A stretch of 63,904 nt of DNA, counting the filler, from Folioceros fuciformis (Eukaryota), in NCBI GenBank assembly GCA_049999805.1. It is 17 parts of 17 records of this genome, joined end to end, with 100 filler letters (N's around TTAATTAATTAA, not from the genome) between each part and the next. Parts side by side here need not be neighbours in the genome. Positions count along the whole stretch, not along the records: positions 41,461 to 46,167 come from JBNGIO010000540.1; 16 more parts are not named here. One strand, written 5' to 3'. Below, one piece after another: positions 19,919-61,176 of this stretch. A program made the position numbers and the translations under genes. The first letter of the stretch is position 1; every line of letters starts with the position of its first letter. The notes below the pieces were generated by a model that saw nothing but the letters and a program-made list of their open reading frames with translations, had not been told where the DNA came from and did no database searches.

Positions 19919-20165
19919 TGTGAACCTCTAAAGTTTGGGGTATTAGTTTGTTTTGGTTGAAAAAGGGTTAATAGTGGTATGGTTTGGTTTTCTTTTTCAA
20001 CTTATTTTCCCTAATTTTCCTTTATTTTCTGGTCATTTTTCCTATTTTTCTTTGTGCTAATTAGGTTAATTGACCAGGAAATAGTTGGTTTGGTTATAAG
20101 AGTGGGTATAGGTTTGGTCCCAGACCTGGGAAGGTTTAGGTTCGGTACCAGGCCATAGGGTTGGG
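19919..20165. mobile_element. LTR-like terminus inserted into copia RT; second copy at 45798-46167
   Basis: Starts TGTG exactly where the RT breaks. About 245 bp near-identical to 45798-46045. Confidence 0.75.
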
Positions 20166-20712: not shown

Positions 20713-21182
20713 CCCAACACCTAACCCCTGACTGCGAATAAGCTCAGCGTAACAAAGATGGAAAAATAGAAAGCACGTTTCATATTTCAGTGGTCAAGGC
20801 AAGACAAGGCAAAATCTTCGAGCGCTTGGCCTCCATGCGAAAGCCACGCGCGGAATATTTACCCGGGTTTTTCACCTCGCAGGTCACCGGCACGAGACTC
20901 AGAGCGAGCAATGAAAGACGGCCACGTTACCGTGAGCATCCTCGGACCTGTGGAGTTGTGGTGCAGGAGTTTTGCGTGGAGCGTGAAGCCGAGGGGAGAT
21001 GCCGGCCCCATAGAGTGCAGACGCCGGTCGTGAAGAGTTCGCGAACTGAAACGTGGGTTGCATCTCGAATTCCAGGCTTGAGGTGGAGGAGGGTGCCGAG
21101 GCAGGGAGCGTGGAAGGGATAAGATTCGTGTATGTGGGTTGTGGAATTCTGTGAGCTTTCGGGAGATTGTTGATTGTTCAGG

Positions 21183-26060: not shown

Positions 26061-27272
26061 CCTATAGTAGGAGGATTGCTTGGGCCGGCTCACTGCTTGT
26101 CTTCCTCCATTGAGTCTACTTGGTATGTTATAGATTAATATAATTATACATGTATCGGCATGATCAGCGGTGGAAGAACACANNNNNNNNNNNNNNNNNN
26201 NNNNNNNNNNNNNNNNNNNNNNNNNNTTAATTAATTAANNNNNNNNNNNNNNNNNNNNNNNNNNNNNNNNNNNNNNNNNNNNCGTTCCTACCTGACTGAT
26301 TACCTCCTGCCCGCGCATCCCCTTTTGCGCTTCCCTTCCTTGGTTCACCACAAAACCGCCTCACTCACCTCAGAAACAAGCGCACGCACACATGAACAAC
26401 AACAATCTGTTGGACACCTTCCACCCGCGTGATCTCACACCTTAGATACACCCCCTGCGGTCTCAATTCAGCTTCTTCACAGCCTCTCTAGTCTCATCGC
26501 AACCAGTCACACATACACACCACATCTCGTTGCACCCCACACACATTACCCACCTCTCCTCCGGGGTTTCCCCGGCTTTGTTCTCTCTTCCCCACTCACC
26601 AGTTCTCTGTATACATTCTACCCATCTTAACAGTCGTCGAATCACTTCCACTCCGCTTCACTTCCTGCTCCACTCCTTCTGCCTTCCTTTTCGCATTCAC
26701 TCTTACCCACTACTCGGCCACTCGCTCCTCCTCCTTCTCACACACGTGTACTCCCGCGCTCTCCTTTCTTCGGTTCTTCAGTCTTCTTTCTCAGCGATGC
26801 CCCCTCCTGGGCTCTTATTAACGTTGAGGAATGGTGAGGTACCGGGGCTAAGGGAAGAGGAGTCCCTTCCACTCCGAACTCGCGGATTCGGCTTCGACAC
26901 CCGCACCACCCCACATGACCACCTCGAGGATAGCTGGGGAGCTTCTCTCCCACTCGGCGAGGCTCCTCCTCCCGATTCGTCCCCGGACTTGATCACGGAG
27001 CGCCCACCACCTACACTCGCACCCCAGGTTGCTACGTGTGCTCGCTTGCCTGGACCTCCTGTCCAGCAACGGCCATCGCTAGGTCCCTGCAAGGTCGACT
27101 GTTTGGCTGGTTCTTGCTGATTCCTTAGACCTTCAAACCGGCCTCTTGTACACGGTGATGGCGGTTTTTTCCGCCATAAAGTCTGTCAGGCAGGGGGGCT
27201 GCGCTCTTAAATTCTGAGCGACTTAGGTCCAAATAAAGCACGCTAAAAAAATCCTATTCTAGCCAACATTTA

Positions 27273-30117
27273 CTATCGCCCTTCCCCACGCCGCTGGCGG
27301 CTTCCTCCTAGCCTTCGCGCGTCACCCCTTACTGCTCCTCCTCTCGCTCTTCTACCCCTCCGTTGGTCCGGCAGATCCTCCCAAAGGATCTCCACATCAC
27401 TGCTGCTACTGCTGGACCTGGCTGGCGGCGAAGGTGGGTCCTGCCGCTGTGGTCCACCACTCCTCCTCCTTCTCTGGTTGCTGAGGACAGCCACAGGCCC
27501 CCGTTCTACCCAGCGCTGGGCCTCCTCTTCCGTCAGTTCCTCCAGAACTGCCTCCGCATAGCAGTGGGGCAGTCCTGTCACCCACCAGCTGTAGTGGTAG
27601 AGTCCCATACGCGTCCTCAACTGTAGGTCGTAGCCCCGCGTCCCTCCTGTGCCCATACGTACATACAGAAACAGCTTCAGAATTCTGGCCCCTTCTACAT
27701 ACAGGCCTGGCACATAGGAGGCCTCCTCCTCATACTGCAGCACAATCCGACCTTGTGTCATAACAGAGGTGCTTACCCCGTCCTCCCTTGGGCTACCTCG
27801 GGTTGCCTGCTCCCCTCCTGCTAGGGTACCTGAAGGTTCTTTGCCTGCCCAGCTGTTGCCTCCTCCGGCTCTATCCTCCTGGTACGGGTCACCCTCCTGG
27901 AGCGCCTAGGGGCAGGCGCCCCTACTGCTTCCTCCTTCATTTCCAGGGTTGGTTCTTCAGCTAACCTGGGCCTTGCTGGGCCGCCGGTAGCCCCGTCGGC
28001 TACCCGACTACCGGTAGTCCCGTGGAGACTACCGGACTTTCGGTAGTCCCGTGGACTACCATACTACCAGTAGTCCCCTCGACTACCATTCCCCTGGTTC
28101 GGCTACCGGTACCCCCTTCTGCTACCGGGGTCGCCGACTGACTCGGACGCCCAGCCTTGCTCTTCCCCTTCACTCTCTCTCTGGCCTCATCCCGCTCTCG
28201 CTTGTATCTGTTAGCCAACTTCTGAGCCTACTCCACAGTGGCTATCTCCATCTCCTGTGCCCTGGCCATTTCCTGTTGCATCTCCAGGTTAGTCTCGTGA
28301 GCCTCCCTCACCTGAGCTAGCAGGGTCCCCTGTTGCTCTTTCAGCGCCTGCACTTCAGCCCTCCCCTCGCGCGCCTCTTCCTCGGCTTGAGCCTTCTCTC
28401 TATCCAGGACCCGCTGCTTCTTCTCCAGCAGTTGCTGCGCCGTCTCTGACTCCGCCAGTTGCCTCCTTGCTTCAGCCTCTCGCTCACGAGCCTTCTCCTC
28501 CCTTCCCCAAGCCTCGGCCTCTCGCTCCGCTTGTACACTTAACCAGGTCAAGGCCCTAGCAGCCTGATCCAGGAGGTCTGCTTGGGCCTGCACCATCGCA
28601 GCAGTCAGCCCGGGTAGGTCCACCTCCTGCACCCCTCCTGTGCCCATTCCTCTCGCCGTGATTTGTCTGCCCAGGAATTCTCGCAACTTGTCCAGGTCCC
28701 CCACCTGCAACCTGTCTCTCTGAGGCCTGCACCTGAAAATGTCCTTCCACCTTGAGGAACCCTCCTGTGCTGAAACGTGCCCTAACTTATCCTCCTGTCT
28801 GGAGGAAACTGTGTCGGCTGCCATCACCTGATCCGGTGGCTCCTCGGGTCTTGTCCCACCCTGACCTTGCTCCTCCAACCTTCGGTCCTTGATTCCCTGG
28901 ACAGCTGGTTCTCATTCTGCCTCCTGCTGACCCGTCTGTTCTAGGGCTGTCCCCCCTTCCTCCTGATCAGCCCCCATGCTCACACGTTCTCCTCTGGTCC
29001 TTTTCCTCCTGGCAGGAATCTTCTTTTGTGGGGCCATCCTCTTCCTGGGCTTGGCTGGGGTTTCCTCCTGCGAGCTATTCCCACTGTCAGCTTCCCAACT
29101 GCTGGAGGCAGCCCTTGCTGGCTCAGCGGGCTTCCACTTCACATCGCGAGCTGGCTTCCACAGGTGCAGCGAGGCCAGCCTTTCTAGCTTAGTGACCAGG
29201 TTAGCGTAACTGTACACATGGATTAGAAACAGGGAAATCATAGAAGGTTCAGGGGTGGGTCGGATTAGGTTCTGCCTCTCCTCATCCATCCGGGTGTATA
29301 AAATTCCCCCAGTCGATCCTGGTGCCCTTCACTACTTCATGCACAAATAGGAGCATCTGATCGGACATATAATCCTGTTTGCGTACCTGAAAGAAGCTCA
29401 GGAACCACCTGGCCAATCCCAACAACTGGGGACTTGCCATGTCGCGCACCAGCCACTCGTTCGCTTCCTTTTTCGTGCCTGCCTTGAGCAGCGTTTCCAC
29501 GGCTCCCGTTCCGCCATGCCTCTTCAGGGACTCCAGCACCAGTCCCCCTTCCTCTTGTTGGTCGCGCCCGTAGACCCCTCCTGATCAACTCCAGGTTCCA
29601 TTCTTGGGGTCTGCCTCTGATCCCCTCCTCGCGTACAGGCTCTATCAGCCTCAGGGCGCACTCCCTGACCAGCTGGGGTGCTACATAGTTCCAATTCTGG
29701 GTCATAAAAGTCAGACCCAGCTCTGCCACCAACTTTCTTGCCCTGACCCTCCAGTGCTCCATATTGGGCCACAGGAGTAGGTTGATTCGAGGGACAGGAG
29801 GTCCCCCTTCCTGTCTAGAGGCTGCTACTCCAAGGATCAGTTCAGGCCGCGACCTCATCCTGGCTATCCTCCTCCCCTCACGCTCGGGCTCGGAACTCTT
29901 CTGTCCTGGTCACGCTCTGGCTCTTCCTTTGTTCGCCCAGCTCTCTCCACCGCTCGCACCTTGGAGGTCTCCCACTCCCCTGTGCCTACTCAACCCTCAC
30001 GCCCTGCGCCATCTGCCCCGTCGTCCTGGCGCTTTCTCCTCCTTTAGCCGCTTCACGCTTCAAGTTACTCCCACTCCCCGCGCTTTCGGATGCTGGACAA
30101 AGCTCCCCTTTCTCTAG
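27273..30117 (-). mobile_element. Unassigned repeat-family ORF, copy 1 (frameshifted, ~860 codons); probably an accessory ORF of an LTR retroelement
   Basis: Homologous to 46268-48808 and 41605-42173 (WPNMEHWRVRA, MLLFVHEVVKGTRIDWG, coiled coil, YEEEASYVP..YSWW.TGLPHCYAEA). Confidence 0.65.
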
Positions 30118-30406: not shown

Positions 30407-30613
30407 GGAGCAAGCACAAAGGCAAGAAACGCCTCCACCAAAGAGGTATCCGACAAGGGAGCGACGGCCACCTAAGGATTGGAGAGAAGGACCAGAGTTT
30501 GCTTCCATTGCTATGACACACGGAAGGGAACCATTGACTGTGGCTGAAGCTCTACAAGGGAAGGATTGCGAGCACTGGAAAGAAGCCATGGATGAGGAGA
30601 TGAGTGTCGTTTA
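30407..30613 (+). mobile_element. Ty1/copia fragment upstream of RT, interrupted by an LTR
   Basis: RYPTRERRPP..EPLTVAEALQG..HWKEAMDEEM. Confidence 0.65.
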
Positions 30614-33600
30614 TGAACAGCAAGTAGATTGTAGTAGGCGCACGCGCACTAGAGACATGTAGGCGAGGAAGCGATAGAATTAAGAATAGAATTAGATGGT
30701 GAAACGACGTTCGTGTGTCTTTCACATGACACGGCAGTTACCAACTACCAACCGTCAACGTGCCCTAAAAATAAATGAAACTATTCATATCTACTCGCCT
30801 AACCCTAATACACTTATTATTTAATACAATTATTATTTAAAGGGTAAGCGAATCCTCATCCAACACCCCCACTTGAGCTTAGCCCTAATTTGAACATGGC
30901 AATTACGCTCCGGCTTGTGTCTTTACTCCGGCGGCTGCTCCATTCTTGTGAAACTTGATCTGCTTACCTCCGAGTTTAGGGTTATGGGTGCTGCACTGCA
31001 ATTGGACTATCCGCCGCCGCACTCGGCCACTGCTGCGCTGCTCTTTAAGACAATTAGGGCTGAGGCCACTCTTTCATTCTCGACTTCACAGCTGTTAAGC
31101 TTGGCCCAGCGCCGCCTCTTGCCTACATGTACTCCGCATGGATGCGTTCTGGACTGCAAGGGCAACAATTTGGCTCCGCTCAGTGACTAGTATCTAGCAG
31201 CTCGCAGTCTTTCTTTGTTCAGGGATTGCAGGCAGTCAGGCCTAGTCTTCTTGCATGTTTGATATGCAGCTCTTTAGACAGGGCCTTTGTGAGTAGATCG
31301 GCTGGGTTCTCTACTGTTGAGATGTAGGTCACAGTTATTTGTCCATCCGCCACCACTTCTCTTATAAAGTGGTGATGGATTTCTATGTGCTTCGTCTTTG
31401 AGTGGAATACCGGGTTCTTTGTAAGCGCTATGGCGCCTTGATTATCACAGTACACCACTGTTGCATCTTTTTGGACGACCTCAACGTCAGATAAGTTCCT
31501 TCTTACCCAGATTACTTCCTTTGCTACAACCGTCAATGCTTTGTACTCAGCCTCAGTGCTTGATGTGGAAACTGTTCCCTGTTTCTTGCTCGACCAAGAA
31601 ATTGGTCCTCCAGCTAGCATCAGTACGTATGCTGACAGTGACTTCCAATTGTTCAGGTCAGAGGCCCAGTCCGAGTCGCAGAATCCTTCAAGAATCAGGT
31701 TCTTTCCTTCTGTGCCTGAATAAACAATCCCTTCAGTAGATGTGTTCTTGAGGTATCTGAACGTGCGTTTGACTTGGCTCCAGTGCTCAGGGCATGGATT
31801 TTCAAGAAACTGTGACTCAAGTCTGACAGCATATGCAATATCCGGCCTTGTCACGTTTGCCAGATATATGAGAGTGCCTACAGCATGCCTATACGGAATC
31901 TTGGCCATCTCTGCAGAATCTTCAGGTATTAAAGGTTCCTGTACCATTGTCAGCTTCAGTCCCGTTGCCAGAGGTGTTGCACACCCATTTGCCTCAGCCA
32001 GATTGAAACGCTTCAGACCTTCTCTAATGTACTTTTTCTGGCAAATTGACAGTCTCCTGGCTGCTCTGTCCCTTGCAATCTCTATGCCTAAACACCACGT
32101 GAGCTCTCCCAGCTCAGTCATCTCGAACTCACGCTTTAGAAGTGCTTTCACTTTGCTCATCAAGCTGCTCTTTCCCTTGGTGGCGGCCAAGACAAGATCA
32201 TCTACGTACAGCAGTAAGATCAGAAAGCTCTCTCCTTCTCTCAACATGTACAGTCCATGATCAGCCGTCCCCTGCTTGAAGACTAGCTTCTTCAGGTACG
32301 CGTCAATTCGATAGTTCCATGCTCTTGGACTCTGCTTGAGTCCGTACAGGGTCTTGTTTAATTTACAAACTAGGTGATCTTTGCCTGGTTGCACATAACC
32401 CTCCGGCTGTTGCATGTAGATTTCTTCTTGCAGCTCACCATGCAGAAAAGCCGTCTTTACGTCCATTTGCTCGAGGTCCAAATCCAGGTGGGCTGCCAGT
32501 GCAAGCACCATCCTCAAAGTTGTGAATTTGACAACTGGAGCAAATGTCTCATTGAAGTCTACACCTGGTACTTGAGAAAAGCCACGAGCGACAAGTCGTG
32601 CCTTGTAGCGTTCTATACTACCATCAGCCTTCTTTTTCAGTTTGAAGACCCATTTGCAGGAAATGGGTTTCCTATCTCTCGGTAGTTCCACAAGTGACCA
32701 GGTACCATTTTTCATGATGGAAGCATATTCATCATCCACGGCCTTCTTCCACTGCTTTGATTTTGATCCTGTGAATGCTTGTGTGAGGGTGACAGGTTCC
32801 AAGGGATCCACACTGGCTGCCACCATGGCTCGGACATATGCACTCGAGGGTTGTGCTTCGCCATGCATTTCTGCAGCTCCAGATGATGACCCCTCTGCAG
32901 CTTGTGCCCCCACTGATGTGTCTGCAGCAGTAACTGGTTCACTCCTTGCAGCATGGGATCGTGACTTGGACTTATTTGGTCGCCAGTCCTCCATCTCCAG
33001 CCAAGGCTCCTTCCAGGGCCTACTTCGATCTCTCAGACTATACCGATGAGGCAGTTGTTCTGATACTGGATTGTGCACATCTGGAGGTTCCTGATCCAAG
33101 ACGTCCACGTCAGCCTGTTCAGGTACATCCTCTTCATTTACTTCGTCCTCTGTCGAGAGACCTTCAGTTTCTGCATTCTCTTCAGAAGTGTCCTCTTCTA
33201 GATCACCAGTCTGGTCAACATGAGAGACCACAGCATCCTGACATCTTCCTTGACTGTATGCAGACTGTAAGGCATCATCGTCCTCAACCTCTGTATCATC
33301 GTGCATCTGTGCACTAGCAAGTCCAGGTCCGGAAACCACGGGGCGCAATGCTTGCAGCAAACTGCGTTCATCAAAAACAACACTTCTGGCATGGCTCACA
33401 ACTCTTGTAACAGGGTCATACAGCTTATAGGCTTTAATGCCATCAATGTATCCTATGAACACCAACTTAGCAGCCCTATCCTGCAGTTTCGACTTCCTTT
33501 TGGGTTTGGGTACAAATGCATATGTAGGTGAGCCAAAAATACGCAGGTGCCGAACAGCTGGCTTCCGCCCCCAGCATGCTTCAAACGGTGTAGTGCCAGG

Positions 33601-41360: not shown

Positions 41361-41604
41361 NNNNNNNNNNNNNNNNNNNNNNNNNNNNNNNNNNNNNNNN
41401 NNNNTTAATTAATTAANNNNNNNNNNNNNNNNNNNNNNNNNNNNNNNNNNNNNNNNNNNNTGTCATGACTCAGCGATGGTGGTGGAAGCTAAACCACCGT
41501 CGCGGAAAACCAAACGGCGGTAACGGAACCCGGACGGCCTGACAAGGATAAACCCATAAGAGAAAAGTCAAGTTTATTTTCAAATAGGAGCGCAACCGGG
41601 GTGA

Positions 41605-42173
41605 GTGGAGAGCAACCGAGGTGGACGAGCGACAGGCAGGAGCGCAATTGTGGCCAGCACAGGTAGGGGCAACACAGGAGTAGCCTTCGCGCTAAGGGTC
41701 GAAACGGCCTTCTGGCCAAACATGGAGCACTGGCGGGTTAGGGCCGGAGGACTGGTGGAGGAGTTGGGCCTCGGGTTCATGACCGAGCGTTGGAATCACG
41801 TAGCTCCAGGCTTGGTGCAGGAGTGTGCTCAGCGGCTGAGGAGGCCGGCCAGAGAAGAGGGGATCCGAGGGAACCCGCAGGAGTGGAACCTGGACATGGT
41901 GAGAAGGGTGTATGGACACAACATGGAGGAGGAAGGAGGACTCGTCCTCAAGTCCCTGAAGAAGAGGAGCACGGCAGCAGCGGCGCTAGCGCTGTTCAAA
42001 ACAGGAAGCCAATGGGTGGTTGGCCAAGGATCTGGCGACGGCCCAACTGAAGGGACTAGCGAGGTGGGTCCTTTGCTTCCTATATATTCGGAAGCAGGAC
42101 TGCCTCTCTGACTAGATGCTGCTATTCGTGCATGAGGTGGTCAAGGGTAGCCGGGTGGATTGGGGAAGGATCC
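41605..42173 (+). mobile_element. Unassigned repeat-family ORF, copy 2, cut by a copia LTR
   Basis: FWPNMEHWRVRAGGLVEELGLGFM..MLLFVHEVVKGSRVDWG ends at the LTR boundary 42174. Confidence 0.7.
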
Positions 42174-45100
42174 TGAAGAAAGAAGCTCTTATATACAAAA
42201 CTTGAGATCTCTCTTGAGTTAAACAGGAACTAAGTCAAGTCTATGAACTAAGGTATAAATTATGTTAGGGTTTCATTCCTAACACTCCCACTAAACCAAC
42301 ATGGTTTATACAACCATAAGTGGTTCATAAACATCATAGATCGCAACATCCAGTGAGAAACCGTACTCCCATCGTTTTCGGCATGGAGCTTCTGAATATC
42401 TTCCTTACATGTTGTGCTTGTTATCTGCTTAGCAGGTCGATTACTTGCTCAAAACTAAAGATGAAGACATGCTCTGGCGGCACAAGCCGCTCTAGGGCCT
42501 CCAACGGTGCCAGCCCTACTCAAAGTCCTTGGCGCATCAGCATGAAGAAAACTAGCAGCAACGGTGGAAGTGGAGCACGCGAACGTCCTGCAACATGCAG
42601 AGCAATCTTGCAAGTAGCTGAGCCTGCGACAGATGCCCTTCCAATCGCTAAGCGCTGCCCAGTGAGAGCTCTACCACCTGCTCCAACCTTGGTTGAGCTG
42701 GAGTCCTCAGAGTCTGAACCTGACATGATCCATATCGACGAAAATTCAGATGCTGTGGAGAGCTTCCCTCGTCGTCAAGCCAAAGATGGAGGAAGAGCTC
42801 CCACTGCACTTGTGCTGGAGCAGCAAGTTGCTGCTGTCATGGCAACTTTGGCTGAGATGGAGGCACTGCTAGACGTAAAGAGAGCTGAGGTAATTCGGCA
42901 GAAAGCAGCCCTGGTAGAGGAAGCTGTAAACAACTCAGCTGCCGCTGCCGACAAGATCTTCTACAACATAGAGGTCGATAGAGCCAAGAGAAACCGGGAC
43001 TGCAACGTGTGTACACACCATAGCCGTCTGTGCCCTCTCTGTGGGAAGAAATTAAGAGAGGTGAACTTCCTAACTAAACCTATTGCATGCCATTTCTACG
43101 TTTTGATTCCAAGTTAAGGCTTCATCCTCCAGACATGCATGTGGACATTGCTAACCTAAGCTTTGACCTTCCCTTGCATAATGGCTATAAGGCTGAAGCT
43201 GTTCCTCGTCGTAACAGTGGCAGTGGCCACTAAGGTGCACACATACTGTGTGTGAATAGCAGCAGTCTCCAGCTTTAGCCATAGCACTGCCTGGGACAGT
43301 CAGTTTGCTTTCTTAGAGTAGTTGAATGCCTTCAGACTCAAGGCAGCCATGTGCTGGAAATGTTTGGCCTTTGTGAGCCCTTTTGTGAAGATGTCTGCTG
43401 GGTTTTGATGAGTGCTTATATATTGCATCTTGATAGCTCCTCGTTCCGCAACATCCCTAATATAGTGATGGTACAATTCTATGTGCTTTGTACGTGCATG
43501 GAACCTAGGATTAGAAACAAGGGCTATAGCACTCAAATTTACACAGTGAAGCAAAGAAGGCTCTTTCTGAGTGTGATTTACTGACTCTAGGAACTGTCGT
43601 TGTCATTCAGCCTTCTTGCAGGCATCTGTAAGAGCTTTGTACTCCGCCTCAATCGAGGATAGAGCAAGGGAAGTTTGCTTCTTACAGCTCCAACTAACAG
43701 ATCTTGAGGACATCATGAAGCAATATGCCGACAGACTCCTACGAGTGTCAGCATCAAACGCCCAATCAGCATCAGCATAAGACATAAGTGTTAAACTATT
43801 GCTCCCACTGAATGTATAGTGAAGGCCATACGAGATGGTTCCTTTAAGGTATTTATATATGCCTTTAACAGCCGCCCAATATAACTGTCCAGGTTGTTTG
43901 AGGAATTGAGAAGCCTAGCTTTTTGCATAACTAATGTCTGGCCTTGTCCAATTTGCTAGAAAAATCAAGCAACCCACAGCTTCAGCGTAAGTCACAAGGC
44001 TCATGTCAGAAATCGCATCAGGACTTTGTGGTGACATGTCTTGTGTCAACTTCTCCCCCACAGCTGATGGTGTGACCACAAGACAAGCCGCATCCAAATT
44101 AAACTGCTTTAGGATTTCCTTAAGGTACTTTGTTTGATGTAGTATAATCTAACCTGCTTGACTATTTCTAAGAATCTGAATTCCTAAGCAAAACTGGAGT
44201 TCACCCTAGTCAGTCATTTCAAACTCCTGCCGTAACATGTCTTTAACCCCGTCCATCTGGCCTAGGTCATTACTAAGCAAGACACAGTCATCAACGTATA
44301 GTGCCAAGATGACAAACAGAGCACCTGAAGATAGATAAAAGACATTGGTATCCGCCGGACATTGAAGAAAACCCAACTTACACAGGTATTTTATAATTCG
44401 TTTATACCAAGCCCGAGGACTTTGCTTCAGCCCATAAATAGTTTTGAGAAGGTGACATACTTTCTTGGCATCCTTCTTACTAACGACCCCTTTGGTTGCT
44501 GCATGTACAACATTTCCTCAAGTTCACCATGAAGGAATGCTGTGCACACATCGATTTGGTGCACCTCCAAATCGTACTCAGCGGCCACTGCAAGTAAAAT
44601 TCGAATGGACGGGGACTTGACTACTGGGGAAAACGTCTCACCATAGTCTACCCCAGGGATTTGACTAAACCCCTTAGCTACTAATTTGGATTTGTAGCGT
44701 GCGATGGTCCCATCAGATTTCAACTTGGTCTTGAAGACCCACTTGCAGCTAATAAGCTTTCTTCGAACTGGTAGGTCAACAAGCTCCCATGTACTGTTGT
44801 TAATGAGACTATTATACTCGTCTTGTATAGATTTCCACTAGTGTTCTCCATCTGGTCCATTTAGAGCCTCTAAGTAGGTCTGAGGATCTGGTCTAACGTT
44901 TGGGACATGAAGATATGAGACATTTGTAGAAAGTCGACGAAAATCATGAGCTTGATAGGGTGGTTCCAACCAGTTTTCCCTTGTTTGTCATTCACGAGTT
45001 GGATATCTCGTTTCTGTCTGAATTACATCTCGATGACCTTCTTGTGCAAGATCACCAACATGAGAATCAACATTGGACAGCACATCATTCGAACCTTGCA

Positions 45101-45797
45101 TGGACTATCCATCCTCATCCATCACAACACGAGGACCATCCTCAGCATCTTGTCCAGAAGAATCCAGATCGTCTTCATCCAGGACAGGAGCGGCAAGAAA
45201 ATTGGCAAACAATTCCTCAGTCTGCTCATCTTCAGTGATGTTGCCATTACCCCGTACAACTTGATCAACATCCTCATGATCTTGTACTGTAGGTGAATCT
45301 TCATCTGAGACAAGATGCATGTAAGGAAGATCCAGAGAAGGATCTTCTTCTAGAGGAGATGTATCTCTAGATGGGTCAACAGGCAACTTAGGAGCAGACA
45401 ACTCTTTGAAAGTACAACTGCAAGATAAGGTTATTTTGGATGTTTGAGGGTCATATAACTTGTAAGCTTTAGACTCCTCAGAATACCCCATAAAGATTAA
45501 GGGTTTTGACCTATCATCTAACTTCCCTCTTCTAGCTTCAGGGATATAGGCAAAAGCCATGGAGCCAAAACCTCGAAGATGAAGAAAACTAGGTTTCCTG
45601 CCCTAGAAACCTTCCTATGGCATCATTCCTGGAAGAGCTGAAGTGATCACACGATTAAGGATATACGTGGCCATCACTACAGCCTTTGCCCAAAATTCTT
45701 TCGACAATGCGGCCCAAGAGAGCATACTTCTGGTTATCCCCATAAGTGTCTGGTTCTTGTGTTCAGCAATTCCGTTCTGCTGCTGGGTATAGGCAAC
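42174..45797 (-). mobile_element. Degenerate Ty1/copia element (integrase, RT, RNase H) with ~1-kb 3' region, PPT and ~111-bp 3' LTR (42174-42284)
   Basis: RGKLDDRS..GYS..YKLYDP, KSKLVAKG, DADWA..ALSSIEAEY, HARTKHI, with several stops and frameshifts. PPT agtgggag then TGTTAGG...CTTCA. Confidence 0.85.
42461..43117 (+). CDS. Antisense accessory ORF inside the copia 3' region: low-complexity N-terminus, coiled coil, C-terminal CxxC-x6-CxxC (218 aa from ATG 42461)
   Basis: Frame open from 42320 to 43117. MKTCSGG...LEQQVAAVMATLAEMEALLDVKRAEVIRQKAALVEEA...CNVCTHHSRLCPLCGKKL. Confidence 0.55.
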   Translation: MKTCSGGTSRSRASNGASPTQSPWRISMKKTSSNGGSGARERPATCRAILQVAEPATDALPIAKRCPVRALPPAPTLVELESSESEPDMIHIDENSDAVESFPRRQAKDGGRAPTALVLEQQVAAVMATLAEMEALLDVKRAEVIRQKAALVEEAVNNSAAAADKIFYNIEVDRAKRNRDCNVCTHHSRLCPLCGKKLREVNFLTKPIACHFYVLIPS

Positions 45798-46167
45798 TGT
45801 GCACCTCCAAAGTTTGGGGTAGTAGTTTGTTTTGGTTAAAAAAGGGTTAATAGTGGTATGGTTTGGTTTTCTTTTTCAACTTATTTTCCCTAATTTTCCT
45901 TGATTTTCTGGTCATTTTTCCTATTTTTCTGTGTGTTAATTATGTTAATTGACCAGGAAATAGTTAGCTTGGTTATAAGAGTGGGTATAGGTTTGGTCCC
46001 AGACCTGGGAAGGTTGAGGTTCGGTACCAGACCATAGGGTTGGGTGATTAGTTTAATATTAATTAAGATATAATATTAAATGATTAAATAATAATATAAT
46101 GATATAAAATAATATAATAATATTAAACATAGGAAGGGGTATCTGGGTGTGTCAGTGTCAGGGGTCA
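45798..46167. mobile_element. LTR-like terminus inserted into copia integrase; same family as 19919-20165
   Basis: Begins TGTGCACCTCC at the point where the copia integrase sequence stops. Confidence 0.75.
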
Positions 46168-46267: not shown

Positions 46268-48808
46268 TCTCCTACCCCTCCGCTGATCGGGTAGATCTTC
46301 CCACAGGATCTCTATGTCACTACTACTGCTGAACCTTTTCGGCGGCGGCACAGGTGGGCCCCACCACTGAGAACCACTGTTTCCCCTCCTCCTCTGGTTA
46401 CTGAGGATGGCAACAGGCTCCTGTTCTACCCATCGTTGGGCCTCTTCTTCCGTCAACTCCTTCAGAATTGCCTCCGCGTAGCAATGGGGCAGGCCTGTCA
46501 TCCACCAGCTGTAGCGGTAGAGTCCCTTGCGGGTCCTCAAATGCAGGTCGTAGCCCCGCGTCCCTCATGTGCCCATACGTACATACAGAAACAGTTTAAG
46601 AACTCTGGCCCCTTCCACATAAAGACATGGCACATAGGAAGCCTCCTCCTCATACTGCAGCACAACCCGACCTTCTGTCATAAAGGAGGTGCTTACCCCT
46701 TCCTCCCTTGGGCTACCGTGGGCTATCTGTTCCCCATCTTTCTGGGGTACCTGAAGGTCCTTCACCCGTCCAGCTGTTGCTTCCTCCGGCTCTTTCCTTC
46801 TTGTGCGGATCAATCTCTTGGAGTGCCTAAGCTCAGACGCCTTCGCTGTTTCTTCCTTGGTTCCCAGGGCTGGTCCCTCGGCTACTCTAGGCTCAGCCGG
46901 GCTACCGGTAGCCCTGGCAAACTACTCGGCTACCGGTAGTCCGCTCGATTACAGGTTCCTTTGCTCGACTACCGGTAGCATCTTCAACTACCGGGGTCGC
47001 CGTTTGACTTGGGTGCCCAACCTTACCCTTCCCCTTCACTCTCTCTCTGGCTTCGTCTCGCTCTCGCTTGTACTTGTCAGCCAGCTTCTGGGCCTGTTCC
47101 ACGGTTGATATTTCCAGCTCTTGCACCTTGGCCATCTCTTGCTGTATCTCCAGGTTAGTCTCATGGGCCTCCCTCACATGAGCTAGTAGGATCCCCTATT
47201 GCTCCCTTAGCGCTTGGACCTTGGCCTTCGCCTGGCATACCTCTTCCTCAGCCTGTGCCCTCTCTTTATCCAGGACTCGCTATCTCTCCTCCAGCTGTTG
47301 CTGTGCCGCCTCCAATTCTGCCAGTAGCCTTCGGGCTTCAACCTCCTTCTGGCATGCCTCTGCTTCCTTCCCTCGGGCCTCGGCTTCCCGTTCCGCCTGC
47401 ACACTTAGCTAGGTCAATGCCCTAGCAGCCTGGTCCAGGAGATCTGCTTGGGCCTGTACCATCGCGGCAGTCAACCCTGGCAGATCCACCTCCTGCGTTT
47501 TTCCAGCAGTCATTCCCCTTGCCGTAGTCTACTTGCCTTGAAACTCCCTCAGCTTCTCCAGGTCTCCCACCTGCAGCCTATCCTTCTGAGGAATGCTCCT
47601 GAAGATTTCCTCCCATCCTGAAAAAAGCTCCTTGCGCCGAAACGTGCCCTAATTCACTCTCATGCCTGGGAGGAACTAACTCGGCGGCTAACATCTGCTC
47701 CTGAGACCCCCCCAGCTTTGCTTCATCCTGCCCCTACTCTTCCACTCCTTGATCCATAACCCCCTGATTAGCGAGCCCCTGTTCTACCTCCTATTCTTGT
47801 ACAACATGTTCCTCTACCTGACCTTTGGTTCGCTCCAGGGCTGTCTCCGGTGTCTCTGGCCTACTCCCTCCTCTCGTGCTCTGCCCGCTGACCCATCTCC
47901 TCTTGGCAAGGGTCTTCCCCTGAGCTGCTGTCCTCTTCTCAGGCCTGACGGGAACCTCCCCCTCCGAGCTGTCCCCACTCCCCGACACCCAACTGCTGGA
48001 GTCAACCTTCACTAGCTCAGCAGGCTTCCATTTTACATCCCTGATTGGCCTCCACATGTGCAGTGAAGCCAACACCTCTAGTTCCGACACCAGGTTAGCA
48101 TAACTATAAATGTGCACTAGAAATGGGGAAATCATCGAGGGCTGAGGAGAGGGCAGGGTCAAATTCTGCCTCTCCTCATCCATCCTGGCATACAGAATTT
48201 TTCCCCAATCAATCCTGGTCCCCTTCACTACCTCATGCACGAACAGGAGCATCTAGTCAGACAGATAATCCTGTTTGCGAACCTGGAGAAAACTAAGAAA
48301 CCACATGGCCAAACCCATCAACTGCGGGCTCGCCATGTTGAGAACCAACCATCCGTTAGCCTCCTTCTTCATGCCTGGTTTGAGCAGTCCTTCAGCGTCT
48401 CCCGCACCCCCCCCGTTTCCTCAAGGACTCCAGCACCAATCCTCCCTCTTCTCGCTGGTCACGGCCATACACCCTCCTCACTAGCTCCAGGTTCCACCCC
48501 TGCGGTCTGTAACTGATCCCCTTCTCACGGACAGGTTCCCTCAACCTCAGGGTGCACTCCTTGACCAATTGTGGCGCTGCGTGGTTCCACTTCTGGGTCA
48601 TGAAACCCAGACCCAATTCATCCACCAGCCCTCCTGCTCTGACCCTCCAGTGCTCCATGTTGGGCCACAAGAGTAGGTCAATCCAGGGAACAAGAGGTTC
48701 CCCCTCTTGCTCGGGTACTCCAGGCAGCAGTTCAGGATGTGACCTCATCCTGCCAATCTCCTTCTCGTGCTCCGGCTTCTGCAGTCCCTCCTCTCTCTCG
48801 CTGAGCAC
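46268..48808 (-). mobile_element. Unassigned repeat-family ORF, copy 3, degenerate
   Basis: Colinear with 27350-29860 throughout, with multiple stops and frameshifts. Confidence 0.7.
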
Positions 48809-49037: not shown

Positions 49038-50856
49038 ACATCCAGCCAAAACCCATTGGCAGAGGCAAAGAATAGATACCTCCAAGAAGCAGCCAAGGCC
49101 ATACTTTATCAGTCCGGTTTATCCAAGCCATTTTGGGCTGATGCAATACAAACTGCCACATATGTGCAAAACCGTTTGCCCACTTCTTCTTTCATAGGTG
49201 CTACCCCATATGAATGGTGGACTGGTTGTAAACCATCCATTTCACATCTGAAAAAATTTTGGCAGCCATGTGTACATGCACATCCCAAAGACCCATCGGA
49301 GAAAGCTAGATTACCAAGCCCGTGCTATGACTTTCATTGGATACACTGAGGGTATCAAAGGGTATAAGGTTTATGACCCTAGCTCCGGCCATGTCACTCA
49401 TACCTGTGTTGGCATTTTTGATGAGAATAACTTGTTGGTTGCAGCTTGTGCTAGAGAGGGGGGCCGACAGGATGTGATGTCTAACTCTCAAGTTACTGAA
49501 TTCCAAAGCGATAGTGATTCTGAACTTGAGCAAATAATTCCATGTGCAAGTCAGCCATAAGTAACTCCACCACAAGCCCCAAGCCATACCTCAGCTCCAG
49601 GCTTAAATCCACCACCACAAGTTGACACTGATGCTGGTGATACATTTGAAGCCAATGCAAGTGAGGGTGAAGCTGAAACTAATGTGCCAACACAGCCTGA
49701 ACTTGGTCAGCCTGCTACGCTTAGGAGGTCAGCGAGACACCATACAAGCTCTCCTCTGGAATGGAGCCAAGTGCCGCTTGCCATGGAAGGGCACATACGG
49801 CCGAATGCAAATATGAATGCCATGCTTGCCCAAATACTCATAGCAGCCCAAGACCTAGGTGAACCAGCATCCTCCAAAGAAGCCATAAACTCACCGGAGA
49901 AGGAGCAGTGGCAAGCAGCGATCAAATCAAAGTTTGATTCCCTTATTGAGAACGAGACTTGGGAATTAGTTGATCTACCCCAAGGAAGGAGGCCGATTTC
50001 AAACAAATGGGTGTTCAAAAGGAAACTTAACCCTGATGGCAGCACAGCTAGGTTCAAAGCTAGACTAGTGGTGCGTGGATTCTCCCAAAGAGAAGGGATA
50101 GACTACAATGAGACCTTCTCTCCTGTTGTGCGTGCGTCATCATTAAGGACACTCATGGCTATCGCTGCTCAAGAAGGTTATCACATCCACCAGATGGATG
50201 TACAGATGGCTTTCCTTAATGGCCTCCTTGAAGAAGAGGTATACATGATGCAGCCTGAAGGCTATATTGATGCCAAGCACCCAAGCAAGGTTTGTAGGCT
50301 GAAGAAAACCCAGTATGGCCTCAAACAAACGAATCGTGGGTGGAACTTGAGGTTGCACACATATCTTGTAAGGAGAGGGTTTAAGCAATCAGATGCTGAT
50401 GACAGTGTCTATGTATATAAGAAGAAAGGGCAGACTGCCTACCTAGCAGTGTACGTCGATGACACAATCATATTTGGGTCTGATAATGGCATGATAAAAG
50501 AGGTAAAAGGCATCCTGTCCTCAGAATTCAAAATGACAGATTTGAGCCCTTGCAAATTCTTCCTAGGTGTCCAAGCACTCATGAACCCAGTGACAGGAAG
50601 CATATTTCTCAACCAGCAGCATTATGTGAGCAGATTACTTGAGAAGTTCAACATGCAAAATGCGAAGCCAGCAGCAACTCCAGCTGCAGTGGGGGCTACC
50701 CTGACACAAGATCCATGTCCCAAGACACTTATTGAGCAGAAGGAGATGGAGAATACACCATACAAAGTTCTTGTAGGGTGTTTGCTATGGCTGAGTGGCT
50801 GGACCAGACTAGATATTGCCCATGCGACATCAATTGCCTCACAATTCTTAGCCAAT
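49038..50856 (+). mobile_element. Ty1/copia integrase-RT fragment
   Basis: AEAKNR..FWADA..NRLPT, KARLVVRG, QMDV, YVDD. Ends at SQFLAN where a TGT-starting insertion begins. Confidence 0.9.
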
Positions 50857-52488
50857 TGTGGATTCCACATGCTGAACAGACCCCTGGGAAATGATAGGTT
50901 TTTTTTTTTTTGGATTTGTGAGTGAGTGTTGTAGAGGAAAGGTTGGGAGATTAGGTTAGAATAGTAGCTAGATTGATGGTGAGTCGATAGGGTAGGTAGG
51001 TTGTGTGGTAGATAGGACGTGGGCTCTGGTCCCTGGAGTAAGGTGATGGAGGAATAGTAAACCCCAAGACGTCATGGAAGGCGAGCGGGGCTTGGCTCTC
51101 TCTAGGAGACTGCTGGTGGAAGCTGGGGACAGGATGGAGGTGTCGGGACGCTACCTAGGTGCATTGGGTGGATAGGGATCACGAGAGCACAGGTGGCCGG
51201 ATTAGTAGACCGGCGGGATCGGGGCGGTGGCCTGGATCTGGTCAGATCGGGGGCCGACAGCAACCGGGCTTTGGCTGACGGGGTTGGCCAGGGATAGATA
51301 TGAAAGGGGCAGGCATCCCCGCAGCGGTGGAGGTAGGTCAGATGGGGGCAAGGCGGTGCGGTGGCCTGTGGCAGGTCGCCGGGGCAGTCTATGACAGGCC
51401 GGTGGCTAGCTGGTGGTCTAGCAGGCTGCTAAGGAGCCTAGCCAGTAGCCTAGCATCCCAGACAGCCAACAACATCAGTTGCGCCAGGTAGCCAGGCCGG
51501 GTAGGCTGGCTGGCTGGCCGGATCCGAGAGGCACGCATGGGCAGCTAGCGTGCCGGTTGATGGCAGGTGATAGGCTGCTGAGGAGTCTCGACAGCAGTGA
51601 ACCTGAGCCGGCTGCAAGCAGGCAGGCGGGCCTGCGGATCTAGGCAGCCAGGCCGACTGGCTGGACCATGGCCAAGCGGCGGGCTGGCCGGATCGTCGAC
51701 AGCAGCGGGAGCAGGCCGGCTGGCGGTGGGGTCTAGCAAGGGCGTTCTGCTAGTTGGAGGCGGCGGCTAAAGAGCTTAGCCAGCAGCCGTCCCAGCCCGG
51801 CAAAAGGTAGGCAGCACTACGAGGGGACAGACCCGACCAACAGTAGGCGGCCCAGCAGCGGGCTGCATGACCGGGTCCGGGAGGACAGGCGGATCCGGCA
51901 CTGCCTAGCAGCTGGTCCAGGCATATGCTGGCCGGCGACCCAACAGCCTAGAGGCTGTAGGAATCCAGGCTAGGCGGGGTCTGGTGATCCAGGCCTGCTA
52001 GCAGCCGGATCGATCGGCAGAGGCAGATCTGAACTAGGCAGCCCAGAGGCGGCGCTGGAGGCTGGCTGGTAAGGCTGGCAGGTGAGGCTCAGGTCAGGCG
52101 GCCGCTGGCCGGCTACAGGGGCAAATCAAGACGCAGCAGGTTGGGCCGGATCCGGAAGCCAAGCAGCAGCCTGGCTGCAGGGCCCAAGCAGGCTGGCGGC
52201 CAGCCGGATTCAAGCTGGCTGGGCAGGTGGCCTGGCCATGGTGGCTGGTCGCAGCTGGGCCGGACAGCCTAAGGCGGCGCTAGATCGTAGCCAGACGGGC
52301 CTCTAGCTGATCCAAATCGTGCTGGCCAGGAGGGGGGCCGGGTATGCGAGAAGGATGGTAGAGGGGCTGCTGGCTGGTGATGGCCGGCTGAGGAGCTTAG
52401 CCAAGCAGCCCAGCCTGTGCCGGTGGCAAGCTGGCTGCCGGGATCCGATCCCGGCTAGGATCTCTGTTGGGCCGCGGGACTGGCTGGG
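50857..52488. mobile_element. GC-rich non-coding repeat, LTR-like, inserted in copia RT; related copy at 62420-63497 in opposite orientation
   Basis: Starts TGTGG. 50930-51040 matches the reverse complement of ~63385-63495. Both copies are rich in ggccgg/ggatcc/gctggc words. Confidence 0.6.
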
Positions 52489-58046: not shown

Positions 58047-61000
58047 CGCATAGGGAGTGGTTTAGCACTTATGATGCTACTAGGAAAGGATGTGTTCGGC
58101 TTGGAAATAACTACGCGTGCGAGATAGCAGGCGTTGGTGATGTGCAGCTGAAGTTCGACAACGGATCTTCATTCACACTAAAGGATGTCAAGCATGTTCC
58201 GAAGTTGACCAAAAGCATGATTAGCGCAGGGCAGTTGGATGACGCTGGCTACCACTGTTGGTTTGGAGATCGTTCTTGGAAGATCTCCAAAGGTTCTCTT
58301 GTAATAGCTCGTGGATCGAAGTGTGGCACTTTGTACTCACTTCAGGTAACCACTGTCAAGGATCATGTGATTTGTGTAGCGGAACAGCCAAGTGTTTCCT
58401 TGTGGCATAGTCGGTTAGGACATATGTCTCAGAAAGGAATGAAGATCTTATCTCGTTTTGGTTACGTCCCTGCTCTTGACTTCTCCGATTTCTCCGTGTG
58501 TGAGCACTGTTTGTATGGAAAACAGACGAAGTCACCACATGGAGCAAGAGGTAAACACAAAAGTAAACCTCTTGAATTGGTTCACAGTGACATTTGTGGA
58601 CCTATGCCCACTGTGTCGTTAGGCGGTGCATCTTATTTTGTCACTTTCATTGATGACTTCTCACGCAAGGTGTGGGTTTATCCTTTGAGGAAAAAGGATG
58701 ATGTTCTGACAGTGTTTCAGAAATTCATCACCCTTGTGGAGAATGAGTCTGGCCTCCGGCTGAAGTGTCTAAGGACAGACAATGGGGGAGAGTATGTCTC
58801 GAAGGCTTTCCAGTCATTCTGTGATTCCAAGGGAATCAAGAGAGAATTGACTACACCGTATACTCCTCCCCAGAATGGTGTGGCTGAGCGGATGAACAGG
58901 AACATCCAGGAGAGGATGCGTAGTTTGTTGTCAAACTCTGGATTGCCTAACGGATTTTGGGCAGAAGCGGTGGTTACGGCAGTGCATCTTATTAACAGAT
59001 CTCCTAATAGGGCTGTGGATGAACAGGTTCCAGAGGAGATGTGGTCTGGAGAGAAGCCGTCATACAAACATCTACGAGTGTTTGGCTGTGAGGCATATTA
59101 CCATGTTCCGAAGGAGTTTCGCGACAAGTTGGCTCCTAAGTCAAGAAAATGTATTTTTCTTGGCTATGGTGAATCTGATGAGATGGGATACCGTCTGTGG
59201 GATCCATAAGCCAAGAGGATGGTTCGCAGCAATGATGTGTTCTTCAATGAGACCAAGATGCACAAGAAGCCTGCTCCAACTGTGGAGGTGCGACGGGTGG
59301 TCTTCCAACAAGATGGACTTGACCGTCCCCCGCAGGCTGAACATCGTGATGTGCAGGAACAAGTTCCTCCACTTGTAGACGAGGAGAGAGTGCAACCAGC
59401 TCCGGTCGAGGCGCCAGTGCTTCGTAGGTCAGGAAGGATCTCACGTCCTCCTGACAGGTATGTTGCATCTCTTGATTATGTCATGCTGACGGATTGTGGG
59501 GAGCCCTCTTGTTACCAAGAGGCCATGTCAGTGACTGACAGAAACAAGTGGGAGAAGGCGATGCAGTCGCAGATGGATTCGCTTCGTAAGAACCAACCTT
59601 GGGAGTTGGTTCGGTTGCCTAAGGGCAAAAAGGCGTTGCCATGCAAATGGGTGTATAAGATGAAGGACATACCCCATTATGGCAAACCCAAGTACAAGGC
59701 ACGATTGGTTGCTAAAGGTTTTAAGCAACAACAAGGTATTGACTTTGATGAGATTTTCTCACCAGTTGTCAAAATGACTACCTTGAGATGTGTTCTTGGT
59801 CTGGTTGCGAGGAACGACATGGAACTTGTCCAGATGGATGTGAAGTCGGCATTTCTGCATGGTGATCTCCAGGAAGAGGTATACATGCAGCAACCAGAGG
59901 GTTTCATTGAGAAGGGCAAAGAGAGTCTGGTGTGCAAGTTAAAGAAGAGCCTTTATGGTTTGAAGCAGGCACCCAGGGAGTGGTATTTCAAGTTCCACTC
60001 ATTTATGCTTTCTCAAGGCTACAAGCGTAGCGATATGGATCATTGCCTCTATACGAAGCAAGCTAAGGATGGAAGCTTGCTCATTCTAGTCCTCTATGTG
60101 GATGGTATGCTAATTGCTGGGACTAACAGTGATGAGATTTCAGCGTTGCAGTCAAAGTTGAATGGTCGCTTTGACATGATAGACTTGGGGGAGGCAAGCC
60201 ATATTTCTTGGCTTGCGTATTCGTCGAGACAGACAAAAGCGTTTGATGTAGTTGTCTCAGACAGAATACATTAACAAGGTGCTTCAACGTTTCAATATGG
60301 AGAAGGGGAAGGTCTTAAGTACTCCGTTGCCTCCATATGTGAAACTTTCGAGCAAGGATTGCCCAAGTTCTGCGGAGGATAAAGCTGAAATGGAGAAGGT
60401 TCCATACTCATCAGCTGTAGGGAGTTTGATGTATGCAATGATTGCTACACATCCTGACATTGCTTTTGCAGTGGGAGTGGTTAGCAGGTTCATGTCAAAC
60501 CCTGGCAGGAAGCATTGGGAGGCAATGAAAGGAGTTATGAGGTATTTGAATGGTACAAAAGCTTTGTGCTTATGTTTTGGTAGTGAAGATGCATCTGTAG
60601 TGGGATATACGGATGCTGATTATGCAGGGGATATGGAAAAAAGGAGTTCCACATCAGGTTATGTCTTCATGTGCACTGGAGGGGCAGTCTCATGGCGATC
60701 TTGTTTGCAATCGTGCATAACGCTATCTACCACAGAGGCCGAGTATGTTGCAGCGACTGAGGCTTGCAAGGAAGCCATGTGGCTTGCTCGTTTAGTGGGA
60801 GATTTGGGGATCAAGGGTGAGCTGCCAGTGTTGCATTGTGATAGCCAGAGTGCTATCCAGTTGGCGAAGAATCCAGTGTTTCATGCGAAGACCAAACATG
60901 TGGAAGTGAAGTATCACTTCATTCGAGAGGTGTTGGAAGACAAGAGGGTACAACTTGTCAAAGTTCACACCAGTCAGAACCCTGCATATGTTCTTACCAA

Positions 61001-61176
61001 GGGGCTCTCTACGGAGCAATTCGCACAAGCTCGGACACTCATGGGCATGAGCTAGACCACTCTCTTATGAAGGTAAATTGGCCTTTAAGTGGGAGGTTGT
61101 AGGGTTATTAAAGCCCAATGTGCTTAGGCTAATGTGTTTAGTCTAAGATTAGTGTCTAGTTAAGTATCATTAGTTT
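58047..61176 (+). mobile_element. Ty1/copia pol (integrase, RT, RNase H), PPT and start of 3' LTR (61098); inactivated
   Basis: WHSRLGH, VHSDICGP, TDNGGEY, KARLVAKG, DADYAGD, TKHVE. Stop at 59207, catalytic YVDD changed to YVDG, frameshift near 60210. Confidence 0.92.

Follow-up and report, generated by a model that had tools for sequence, protein, structure and literature searches.

Antisense extra genes are recurrent yet unexplained in plant Ty3/gypsy elements, and the locus described here raises the question of whether a Ty1/copia element has carried such a gene as well. As the original prediction had it, and in agreement with the accessible text of PMC7264820 and PMC4093653, extra ORFs of copia elements are sense and env-like, and antisense ORFs are reported in the gypsy elements Grande, RIRE2, Retand and pvRetro13. 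No antisense extra gene of a Ty1/copia element is described in the searchable literature; further elements with an extra ORF may appear in the supplementary material of PMC11963269 and PMC4093653. Should purifying selection prove to maintain the frame in sibling copies, both LTR superfamilies would have gained antisense accessory genes independently of each other, and the small and simple protein (a helix plus a Cys4 motif) would then offer a tractable case for the function of such genes. If the frame is not kept, the locus is just another orphan ORF of a transposon in decay, without wider consequence.

The window, that is, the whole stretch of 63,904 nucleotides from Folioceros fuciformis (GCA_049999805.1) that was analysed, consists of 17 unrelated contigs joined via N44-TTAATTAATTAA-N44 spacers, and the copia 'element' is therefore only a 5′-truncated piece on one 4707-bp contig (41461-46167). 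The minus strand of this piece encodes a degraded Ty1/copia pol (43300..45800; integrase C-terminal part, RVT_2 and RNase H region), delimited by domain matches and alignment. Pfam matches RVT_2 (E 1.4e-37 and 9.6e-22) and SH3_retrovirus (E 2.7e-25), and the integrase C-terminus (SH3_retrovirus) upstream of an RVT_2-type reverse transcriptase (RT), both on the minus strand, identifies the piece as Ty1/copia. In the RT, its best-matching relatives share no more than 68% identity with it. Compared with residues 533-1330 of a full-length copia polyprotein (P0017), the pol from 45800 to 43330 contains 9 in-frame stops and 1 frameshift, which bears out the claim that it is broken, and the natural stop of its last frame is at 43300-43302 (minus strand). 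Upstream, the element is truncated within the integrase by an AT-rich repeat (45801..46167, no strand assigned) that homology and depth mark as non-copia, with a very high summed depth of 3e4-1e5 vs ~9.5 for unique pieces.

Downstream of pol, ~1 kb (42285-43299) separates the pol stop from a PPT-like run and the 3′ LTR. The run, GGTTTAGTGGGAG (42297-42285, minus strand), lies directly upstream of the LTR and, given this position, is probably the PPT. The LTR (42176..42284, minus strand, ~109 bp) begins with TGTTAGG at 42284, a start that occurs only once in the window. Two independent homology breakpoints define the far end of the LTR, namely the point at which a match to another repeat family stops (~42175-42178) and the point at which an exact match of a contig from run X4 starts (42176). 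It is the only LTR in the copia piece, the 5′ part being missing, and related copia loci have LTRs down to 119-144 bp. At or next to the LTR end lies an unrelated flanking repeat family (41709..42175, no strand assigned) that was recognised by homology (66-69% identity with 48671-48193 and 29771-29307) and for which no Pfam family was found. The spacer contains no tandem repeats, and an Rfam search of the window returned nothing.

On the opposite strand the spacer holds a plus-strand frame that is open from stop to stop over 42320-43117 (265 codons), as expected from the uninterrupted frame of ~800 nt that had been predicted. An open in-frame stretch (42320..42382) precedes the first ATG (context GGCATGG), from which an antisense ORF of 244 aa runs over 42383..43117 to a TAA at 43115-43117. 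The ORF is situated between pol and the 3′ LTR and antisense to gag-pol, which is the aORF-3R layout, and the predicted order of pol, ~1-kb spacer with an intact opposite-strand ORF, PPT and LTR agrees with ours in its coordinates (43300-43302, 42297-42285 and 42284).

Such a frame could be stop-free by accident in a spacer that is non-coding. Its length speaks against this, as none of 5000 shuffles of 42285-43299 that preserved dinucleotide composition contained 265 open codons when all six frames were read (largest 252), placing the frame beyond chance for this segment. On the other hand, the frequency of stop triplets yields an estimate of ~2e-4 such frames per kb, and hence tens of them in a genome of hundreds of Mb, and in the window itself the strand opposite a PPR gene bears two spurious ORFs, of 209 and 213 codons. 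Codon usage separates the ORF from these controls. With a codon log-likelihood table built from the TE genes of the window, the in-frame ratio is 0.14-0.16 for the ORF vs 0.116-0.184 for seven true TE ORFs, and the observed score was matched by just 15 of 634 chance ORFs of at least 150 codons. The first codon position is composed as in real genes (G 0.32, T 0.14), whereas the two spurious ORFs have negative codon scores and show no first-position G enrichment; five other ORFs of 210-257 codons without a Pfam family in the window all score lower in codon usage. The signal is not uniform along the ORF: the sliding-window log-likelihood ratio is coding-like over 42560..43010 (plus strand) and near zero in the first ~60 codons and in the Cys tail, leaving one third of the ORF not coding-like. 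The survival of the ORF beside a broken pol, an argument of the original prediction, turned out to be a weak one, because at the decay rate implied by pol luck alone would keep the frame open with P 0.10-0.17 (analytic estimate). Taken together, length and codon usage support an ORF that exceeds chance expectation and has a coding-like core.

The encoded protein begins with a hydrophobic stretch (residues 1-26), followed by a basic, disordered region (residues 27-100, pI 11.3), an acidic patch (residues 101-140, pI 4.3), a helix and a Cys-rich tail. AlphaFold, run on the single sequence, predicts one long alpha-helix of 73 aa (residues 141-213; 42803..43021, plus strand), with block-mean pLDDT >90 for residues 151-180. 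The claimed coiled coil could not be substantiated: although a long helix is predicted, its heptad periodicity is not significant, as the observed power at period 3.5 was reached in 2996 of 5000 shuffles, that at period 7.0 in 109 of 2000 and that at the best period (6.5) in 170 of 2000. A homodimer prediction for residues 135-244 scored 0.01. The second predicted hallmark, CxxC-x6-CxxC, is indeed there as CNVC-THHSRL-CPLC (residues 207-220; 43001..43042, plus strand), a paired-CxxC pattern (C..C-x(2-20)-C..C) that arose in 1324 of 100000 residue shuffles (1.3%); the zinc binding attributed to it found no backing in Pfam, PDB sequences or Foldseek, all of which came back empty. A long confident helix and a paired CxxC motif are not what an accidental frame would be expected to specify, and this stands against the orphan status of the protein, its low recognition score (see below) and a model that is mostly disordered (mean pLDDT 51), all of which would suit an accident. 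Weighing these points with length and codon usage, we regard a chance origin of the frame as improbable.

The spacing CxxC-x6-CPxC, following a helical region, is reminiscent of the final two ligand pairs in a C3HC4-type RING (zf-C3HC4_3, PF13920). A RING has eight cross-braced Cys/His ligands, whereas the motif offers only C207, C210, C217 and C220, the first four zinc ligands being absent from the ORF. In a protein-language-model look-up of residues 135-244, RING-finger clusters were the only ones among the ten best named matches (0.77-0.79), which we treat as a lead only; no RING match was obtained from Pfam or PDB sequences up to E 10, and the atlas value of 0.79 is below evidence level. 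A zf-RVT-like reading of CPLCG was ruled out, as Pfam shows no zf-RVT match for the ORF.

Searches for relatives of the protein were negative throughout. No relative was found among 2057 candidates (0 matches), two metagenome scans gave nothing, and tblastn against the window recovered only the ORF itself. Against 1.84 billion representative proteins, phmmer returned a single match (P0001), which was rejected as spurious, being a repeat protein in which a 22-residue Ser/Gly stretch was matched three times. A Pfam scan gave no family above cut-off; Cript (E 0.0065, 17.5 bits vs a cut-off of 25.5) and the sub-threshold ST7, Adeno_E4, zf-Vps39_C, Emfourin and HCMV_UL139 were judged compositional. 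A PDB sequence search with the C-terminal 106 aa produced only ZNF57 (E 1.4-1.7, not significant), and Foldseek, which had been proposed as a check for a fold, gave 0 PDB matches for the AlphaFold model, a model of low confidence outside the helix. In the protein atlas the whole ORF protein had no usable match, and its recognition score was 1862, where 2300 is reached by 91% of known-family proteins.

The closest parallels in layout are the aORF-3R genes of Ty3/gypsy elements (Grande gene23, RIRE2, the Retand TRP28 ORFs and pvRetro13 ORF2), which, in the accessible parts of PMC7264820, PMC4093653 and PMC11963269, occupy the same opposite-strand place between pol and the 3′ LTR, likewise span several hundred codons, mostly have no database relatives and have no assigned function. 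Some of their proteins match a coiled-coil-type (Smc) domain according to the same portions of these sources. The known carriers are Ty3/gypsy, whereas the present element is Ty1/copia (RVT_2); their spacers measure 2.9-6.6 kb in the available text of PMC11963269, as opposed to ~1 kb here; and TRP28 (PF04195), found in most Retand ORFs, is missing from the present one, whose Pfam scans list neither Transposase_28 (PF04195) nor Smc at E values up to 10. Furthermore, conservation of the gypsy ORFs extends to other copies and species, while the present ORF was read in one copy. Within copia, the env-like extra ORFs of Sirevirus/SIRE elements (such as pvRetro3 and pvRetro4) also lie between pol and the 3′ LTR and comprise a few hundred codons, as far as the accessible text of PMC4093653 goes. 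These are sense ORFs of 10-kb elements with 1.7-kb LTRs, whereas ours is antisense beside an LTR of ~109 bp, in a spacer whose sense strand is free of stops for 84 codons at most.

None of the related copia elements compared carries the ORF. Among 80 related copia loci, no homologue was found. In all 18 related loci with both LTRs (18/18), the gap between pol and LTR is 7-418 bp and antisense frames reach at most 66 codons, so that the spacer described here is 2.4 times the longest of them. The other copia 3′ regions of the window (30407-31400, 50800-52488 and 60900-61176) contain no comparable antisense ORF either, the longest having 108 codons. GC content is 0.52-0.54 in the ORF core vs 0.41-0.46 in pol. 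Because the spacers of its relatives are short and without an ORF, and because its GC is unlike that of pol, the ORF was apparently acquired by the family and not inherited from copia ancestors.

Alternatively, the spacer core may derive from part of a host gene or from some other mobile element that came to lie antisense by accident and was never of use to copia, brought in by transduction-like capture, or by nested insertion with later deletion, in one copy or a small subfamily. The GC step of ~0.09 between ORF core and pol and the exceptional spacer length relative to the 18 related elements fit such a passenger, as do the RING-finger clusters heading the look-up of residues 135-244, lead though they are. 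There is precedent in the accessible text of PMC7264820, where transduced gene fragments in LTR retrotransposons (such as maize Bs1) are internal foreign coding sequence in few copies and transduced aORFs occur in one or few copies. The donor gene of maize Bs1-type fragments is known, whereas a donor of the present ORF was not found among public protein sets, and a conserved plant gene fragment at ~9% divergence should have matched orthologues among the 1.84 billion proteins, of which none did. An independent insertion with its own TSD had been named as an outcome that would overturn the original prediction, and we looked for it; neither a TSD nor a TIR flanks the segment 42285-43299.

Contig depth bears on the same alternative. 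An exact 1113-base contig covers 42289-43401 in runs X1 and X2 (possibly source data). Summed contig depth in X1 is 18-34 over the ORF and 19-24 over the fast-evolving integrase-RT linker of pol, and contig cover over the ORF corresponds to ~2-3.5 copy-equivalents. As these depths are equal, the ORF appears to be no rarer than family-specific pol, a weak hint given that depth is one figure per contig. An earlier reading of the depth dip, that most copies are without the segment, was withdrawn because the variable pol linker is equally low. One sibling contig is visible (depth 17 in X1 and 31 in X2); it aligns with the spacer only in patches and has a 1-base insertion after 42740 that would shift the ORF frame there. 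The match of the spacer only in islands would suit a private passenger, but within pol the same contig is just as patchy across the variable part, with joints at positions between 44912 and 45451, and the pattern may therefore just reflect divergence. On balance, a passenger without use to the element is a somewhat doubtful account of the spacer.

Our preferred reading, which we hold only tentatively, is that this family acquired an antisense extra ORF comparable to those of Ty3/gypsy Retand or Grande, that the ORF is restricted to the family, and that it persists as a relic. The ORF would be, or until recently would have been, real protein-coding sequence of an old and small Ty1/copia family of a land plant, and the unusually long pol-LTR spacer with an ORF running against pol would correspond to the aORF-3R arrangement of Grande, RIRE2 and Retand. 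Because the element is 5′-truncated and its pol dead, nothing selects for the ORF in the present copy. The product, of ~27 kDa, would combine a basic and disordered half with an acidic patch, a single long helix and, at the C-terminus, a knuckle of four cysteines; most likely it would associate with nucleic acid or chromatin and regulate the expression of its own element. A more ambitious version strikes us as quite improbable. In it, a Ty1/copia lineage would have evolved an accessory gene of its own in antisense behind pol, as the copia counterpart of the Retand and Grande genes. The encoded protein, unrelated to theirs (basic tail, long helix, half-RING-like Cys4 knuckle), would be made from a promoter at the inner LTR edge on the 3′ side and would tune the expression or silencing of the element.

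Under the relic reading, transcription from an intact copy would begin at the inner 3′ LTR edge. There, TATAAAT (42254..42260, plus strand) is a candidate antisense promoter element within the LTR, 123 nt upstream of an ATG whose context is good. The proposal of an accessory gene driven from the 3′ LTR, possibly a counter-silencing factor, went further than this, and no support for it was found beyond the position of the ORF; a TATAAAT box does stand on the plus strand in the LTR. The antisense transcript could also pair with genomic RNA. The RNA itself may be the working part, as with the antisense transcripts of Ty1 and micropia, starting at the LTR edge and pairing with genomic RNA or feeding siRNA, with the ORF being incidental. 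The plus-strand TATAAAT fits this reading, and dsRNA-mediated regulation is raised as an alternative role of antisense transcription in the accessible text of PMC7264820. It would, however, leave unexplained why a frame of 265 codons is open and coding-like in its codon usage, and of the readings weighed here we give this one the least credence. Run X4 (guessed to be RNA) has no cover over the ORF and touches only 45 LTR bases. A bacterial-type promoter and terminator scan, irrelevant here, was empty. The putative leader holds one 9-codon uORF, with its ATG at 42301.

The 63904-base window is not a single locus but joins 17 contigs of 1.0–17.7 kb each through N44-TTAATTAATTAA-N44 spacers (17705-17804 and 15 further places), and for that reason features that lie on separate pieces are not genomic neighbours. 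Read on the minus strand, the ORF-bearing contig 41461-46167 (4707 bp) opens with an AT-rich repeat (46167 to ~45801), which truncates the copia element inside integrase. The summed contig depth of this sequence is extreme (3e4–1e5 versus ~9.5 for unique pieces), and it represents a highly abundant repeat or else a low-complexity magnet; it is 95% identical to 19919-20165, and both lie at contig ends. From inside integrase, pol extends through the RNase H region and the usual pol tail to a stop at 43300-43302, with Pfam matches to SH3_retrovirus (E 2.7e-25) and RVT_2 (E 1.4e-37 and 9.6e-22). A spacer of ~1 kb separates this stop from GGTTTAGTGGGAG (42297-42285), which directly precedes an LTR starting TGTTAGG at 42284. 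We place the LTR at ~109 bp because homology to an unrelated repeat family on its far side (other copies at 48671-48193 and 29771-29307) ends at ~42175-42178 and the exact match of a contig from another sequencing run, X4, begins at 42176. Given that LTRs of related elements are as short as 119–144 bp, this could plausibly be the whole LTR. The contig lacks the 5′ LTR, PBS, gag and protease. Those RT relatives that carry a source name come from ferns and flowering plants.

Within the spacer, and antisense to pol, the plus-strand frame 42320-43117 is stop-free for 265 codons, its first ATG (42383, context GGCATGG) giving a product of 244 aa. In 5000 shuffles of 42285-43299 that preserve dinucleotides, no frame attained 265 codons (mean 100, maximum 252). 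The stop-triplet frequency in the shuffles puts the chance of such a frame at ~2e-4 per kb, which is rare for a single window yet not on the scale of an entire genome; length by itself is therefore not decisive. Scored with a codon table from the window's transposon genes, the ORF reaches an in-frame log-likelihood ratio of 0.14–0.16, as against 0.116–0.184 for seven true TE ORFs and negative values for two spurious ORFs that lie opposite a PPR gene; 15 of 634 chance ORFs of at least 150 codons (from 18046 shuffles) do as well. The coding-like signal is confined to 42560-43010, the first ~60 codons and the Cys tail being near zero, and the GC content of the ORF core is 0.52–0.54 versus 0.41–0.46 in pol. 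The ORF is real, open and coding-like, within an atypically long copia spacer; that it arose by chance, as its length would allow on a genome-wide scale and its codon score would not suggest, is improbable.

The original prediction stressed that the ORF is intact while the pol of the same element is broken. Aligned with P0017, a full-length copia polyprotein, over residues 533-1330 of that reference, pol indeed carries nine in-frame stops and one frameshift. If substitutions follow the spectrum observed between copies, nine stops in 831 codons correspond to ~0.087 substitutions per site, a level that should introduce 1.8–1.9 stops into the antisense frame. At this decay rate the probability that the ORF acquires neither a stop nor a frameshift is 0.10–0.17, and the contrast is therefore compatible with luck.

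The predicted protein comprises a hydrophobic start (residues 1-26), a basic Ser/Arg/Gly-rich part (27-100, pI 11.3), an acidic patch (101-140, pI 4.3) and a helix (141-213) in a single-sequence AlphaFold model, whose block-mean pLDDT exceeds 90 at residues 151-180 and averages 51 over the whole model. A coiled coil had been proposed here, but the helix does not bear it out, as its hydrophobic power was equalled in 2996 of 5000 shuffles at period 3.5 and in 109 of 2000 at period 7.0. The proposed zinc-binding CxxC-x6-CxxC is present as CNVC-THHSRL-CPLC (residues 207-220), but Pfam, PDB and Foldseek assign it no family; a paired CxxC motif occurs in 1324 of 100000 residue shuffles, which is unusual, but the motif was picked out post hoc. 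The Pfam scan returned sub-threshold rows only, the PDB sequence search a sole match to ZNF57 (E 1.4), Foldseek 0 matches with the model, and a word-indexed search of 5.8 billion proteins none; the single phmmer match among 1.84 billion representatives was repeat-driven and was rejected as spurious. The best ten named matches in an atlas look-up of residues 135-244 were all RING-finger clusters (0.77–0.79, graded by the tool as a lead only). In C3HC4_3 RINGs the last two ligand pairs have the CxxC-x6-CPxC spacing seen here, but RING membership fails because the first four ligands are missing.

When the RT piece was used to scan metagenomes, 80 copia loci of 43–61% identity emerged. None of them is matched by the ORF (tblastn, best E 0.6) or by the DNA of the spacer. 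The pol C-terminus lies off the locus in 21 of the 80. An LTR pair is detectable in 18, with pol–LTR gaps of 7–418 bp and a longest antisense ORF in the gap of 66 codons; of the other 41, 24 have at least 1 kb beyond pol, and among these 24 a long antisense ORF occurs in L038 only (318 codons, 9516-10469, minus strand). We rejected the latter as a counterpart, since it belongs to an adjoining LINE fragment (zf-RVT, E 3.8e-17, and RVT_3). In L038 this fragment lies antisense directly after copia pol, and a long antisense ORF in that position can be a mere neighbouring element. Because these related loci lack the ORF and the 18 with an LTR pair have short gaps, the long spacer and its ORF were probably acquired late, by this copia family or copy, rather than being copia-wide. 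Alternatively, the ORF may be a passenger fragment private to this copy or a small subfamily, which is rather unlikely. The spacer segment shows neither a TSD nor a TIR as a sign of the independent insertion that the original prediction had named as a refutation.

An exact 1113-base contig piece (42289-43401) recurs at single-copy depth (9.5 and 14.3, respectively) in X1 and X2, two DNA runs that contain the segment and may themselves be the source data. The summed X1 depth is 18–34 in ORF bins, 64–630 in conserved pol and 19–24 in the fast-evolving integrase–RT linker; the family proper therefore seems to have few members, with the ORF no rarer than family-specific pol. A sibling contig (depth 17 in X1, 31 in X2) aligns to the spacer only up to 42317, at 42444-42468 and 42695-42759, and from 43119 on, with one extra base after 42740, and the variable part of pol aligns in a similarly patchy way. 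Because depth is a single figure per contig, this evidence on copies is weak and neutral overall. The ORF is an orphan, known from a single decayed copy. We tentatively prefer, at somewhat less than even confidence, that it would be an antisense extra ORF borne by the family and surviving here as a relic.

TATAAAT at 42254-42260 (plus strand) lies inside the LTR, 123 nt before the ATG, with a 9-codon uORF between it and the ORF ATG, and is a candidate promoter motif only. A region acting solely as antisense RNA could use this motif, with the coding-like codon usage left aside, and is very unlikely. As an accessory gene the ORF is an unproven candidate. In the relevant passages of PMC7264820, PMC4093653 and PMC11963269, antisense ORFs that lie between pol and the 3′ LTR are attributed to Ty3/gypsy elements alone, and the extra ORFs of copia are sense-oriented and env-like, in agreement with the original prediction. 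We found no description of a copia antisense ORF in the openly searchable literature, which does not prove absence; term look-ups gave 0 occurrences in PMC6317226, and those in PMC2533021 and PMC6696364 revealed no such ORF either.

Elsewhere in the window, five host genes occupy single open frames at 1171-4020 (minus), 12224-15832 (plus), 6196-6849 (plus), 6965-8131 (minus) and 21174-22775 (plus), in this order two intronless genes for PLS-class PPR proteins with E motif, then genes for a protein with a DTW domain, an AAA protein resembling ClpB and a SufD-like protein. Together, and by the PPR-E proteins in particular, they suggest that the DNA is from a land plant. Five ORFs of 210–257 codons without a Pfam family, at 4672-5442 (plus), 26446-27117 (plus), 27276-27905 (minus), 28231-28911 (minus) and 46295-46936 (plus), have mostly negative codon-usage scores, the exception being 28231-28911 (0.116, host table). 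The repeat family bordering the LTR, which has no class, spans three contigs (41605-42175, 47791-48748 and 29307-29909) at 66–69% DNA identity and has conserved ORFs (MEHWRVRAGGLV... and MLLFVHEVVKG...) that matched no Pfam family. Finally, 525 of the 664 places at which run X3 differs from 41461-46167 are C>T or G>A; X3 resembles what bisulfite or enzymatic conversion of DNA from this sample would give, and a methylation read-out of the copia element may be obtainable from it.
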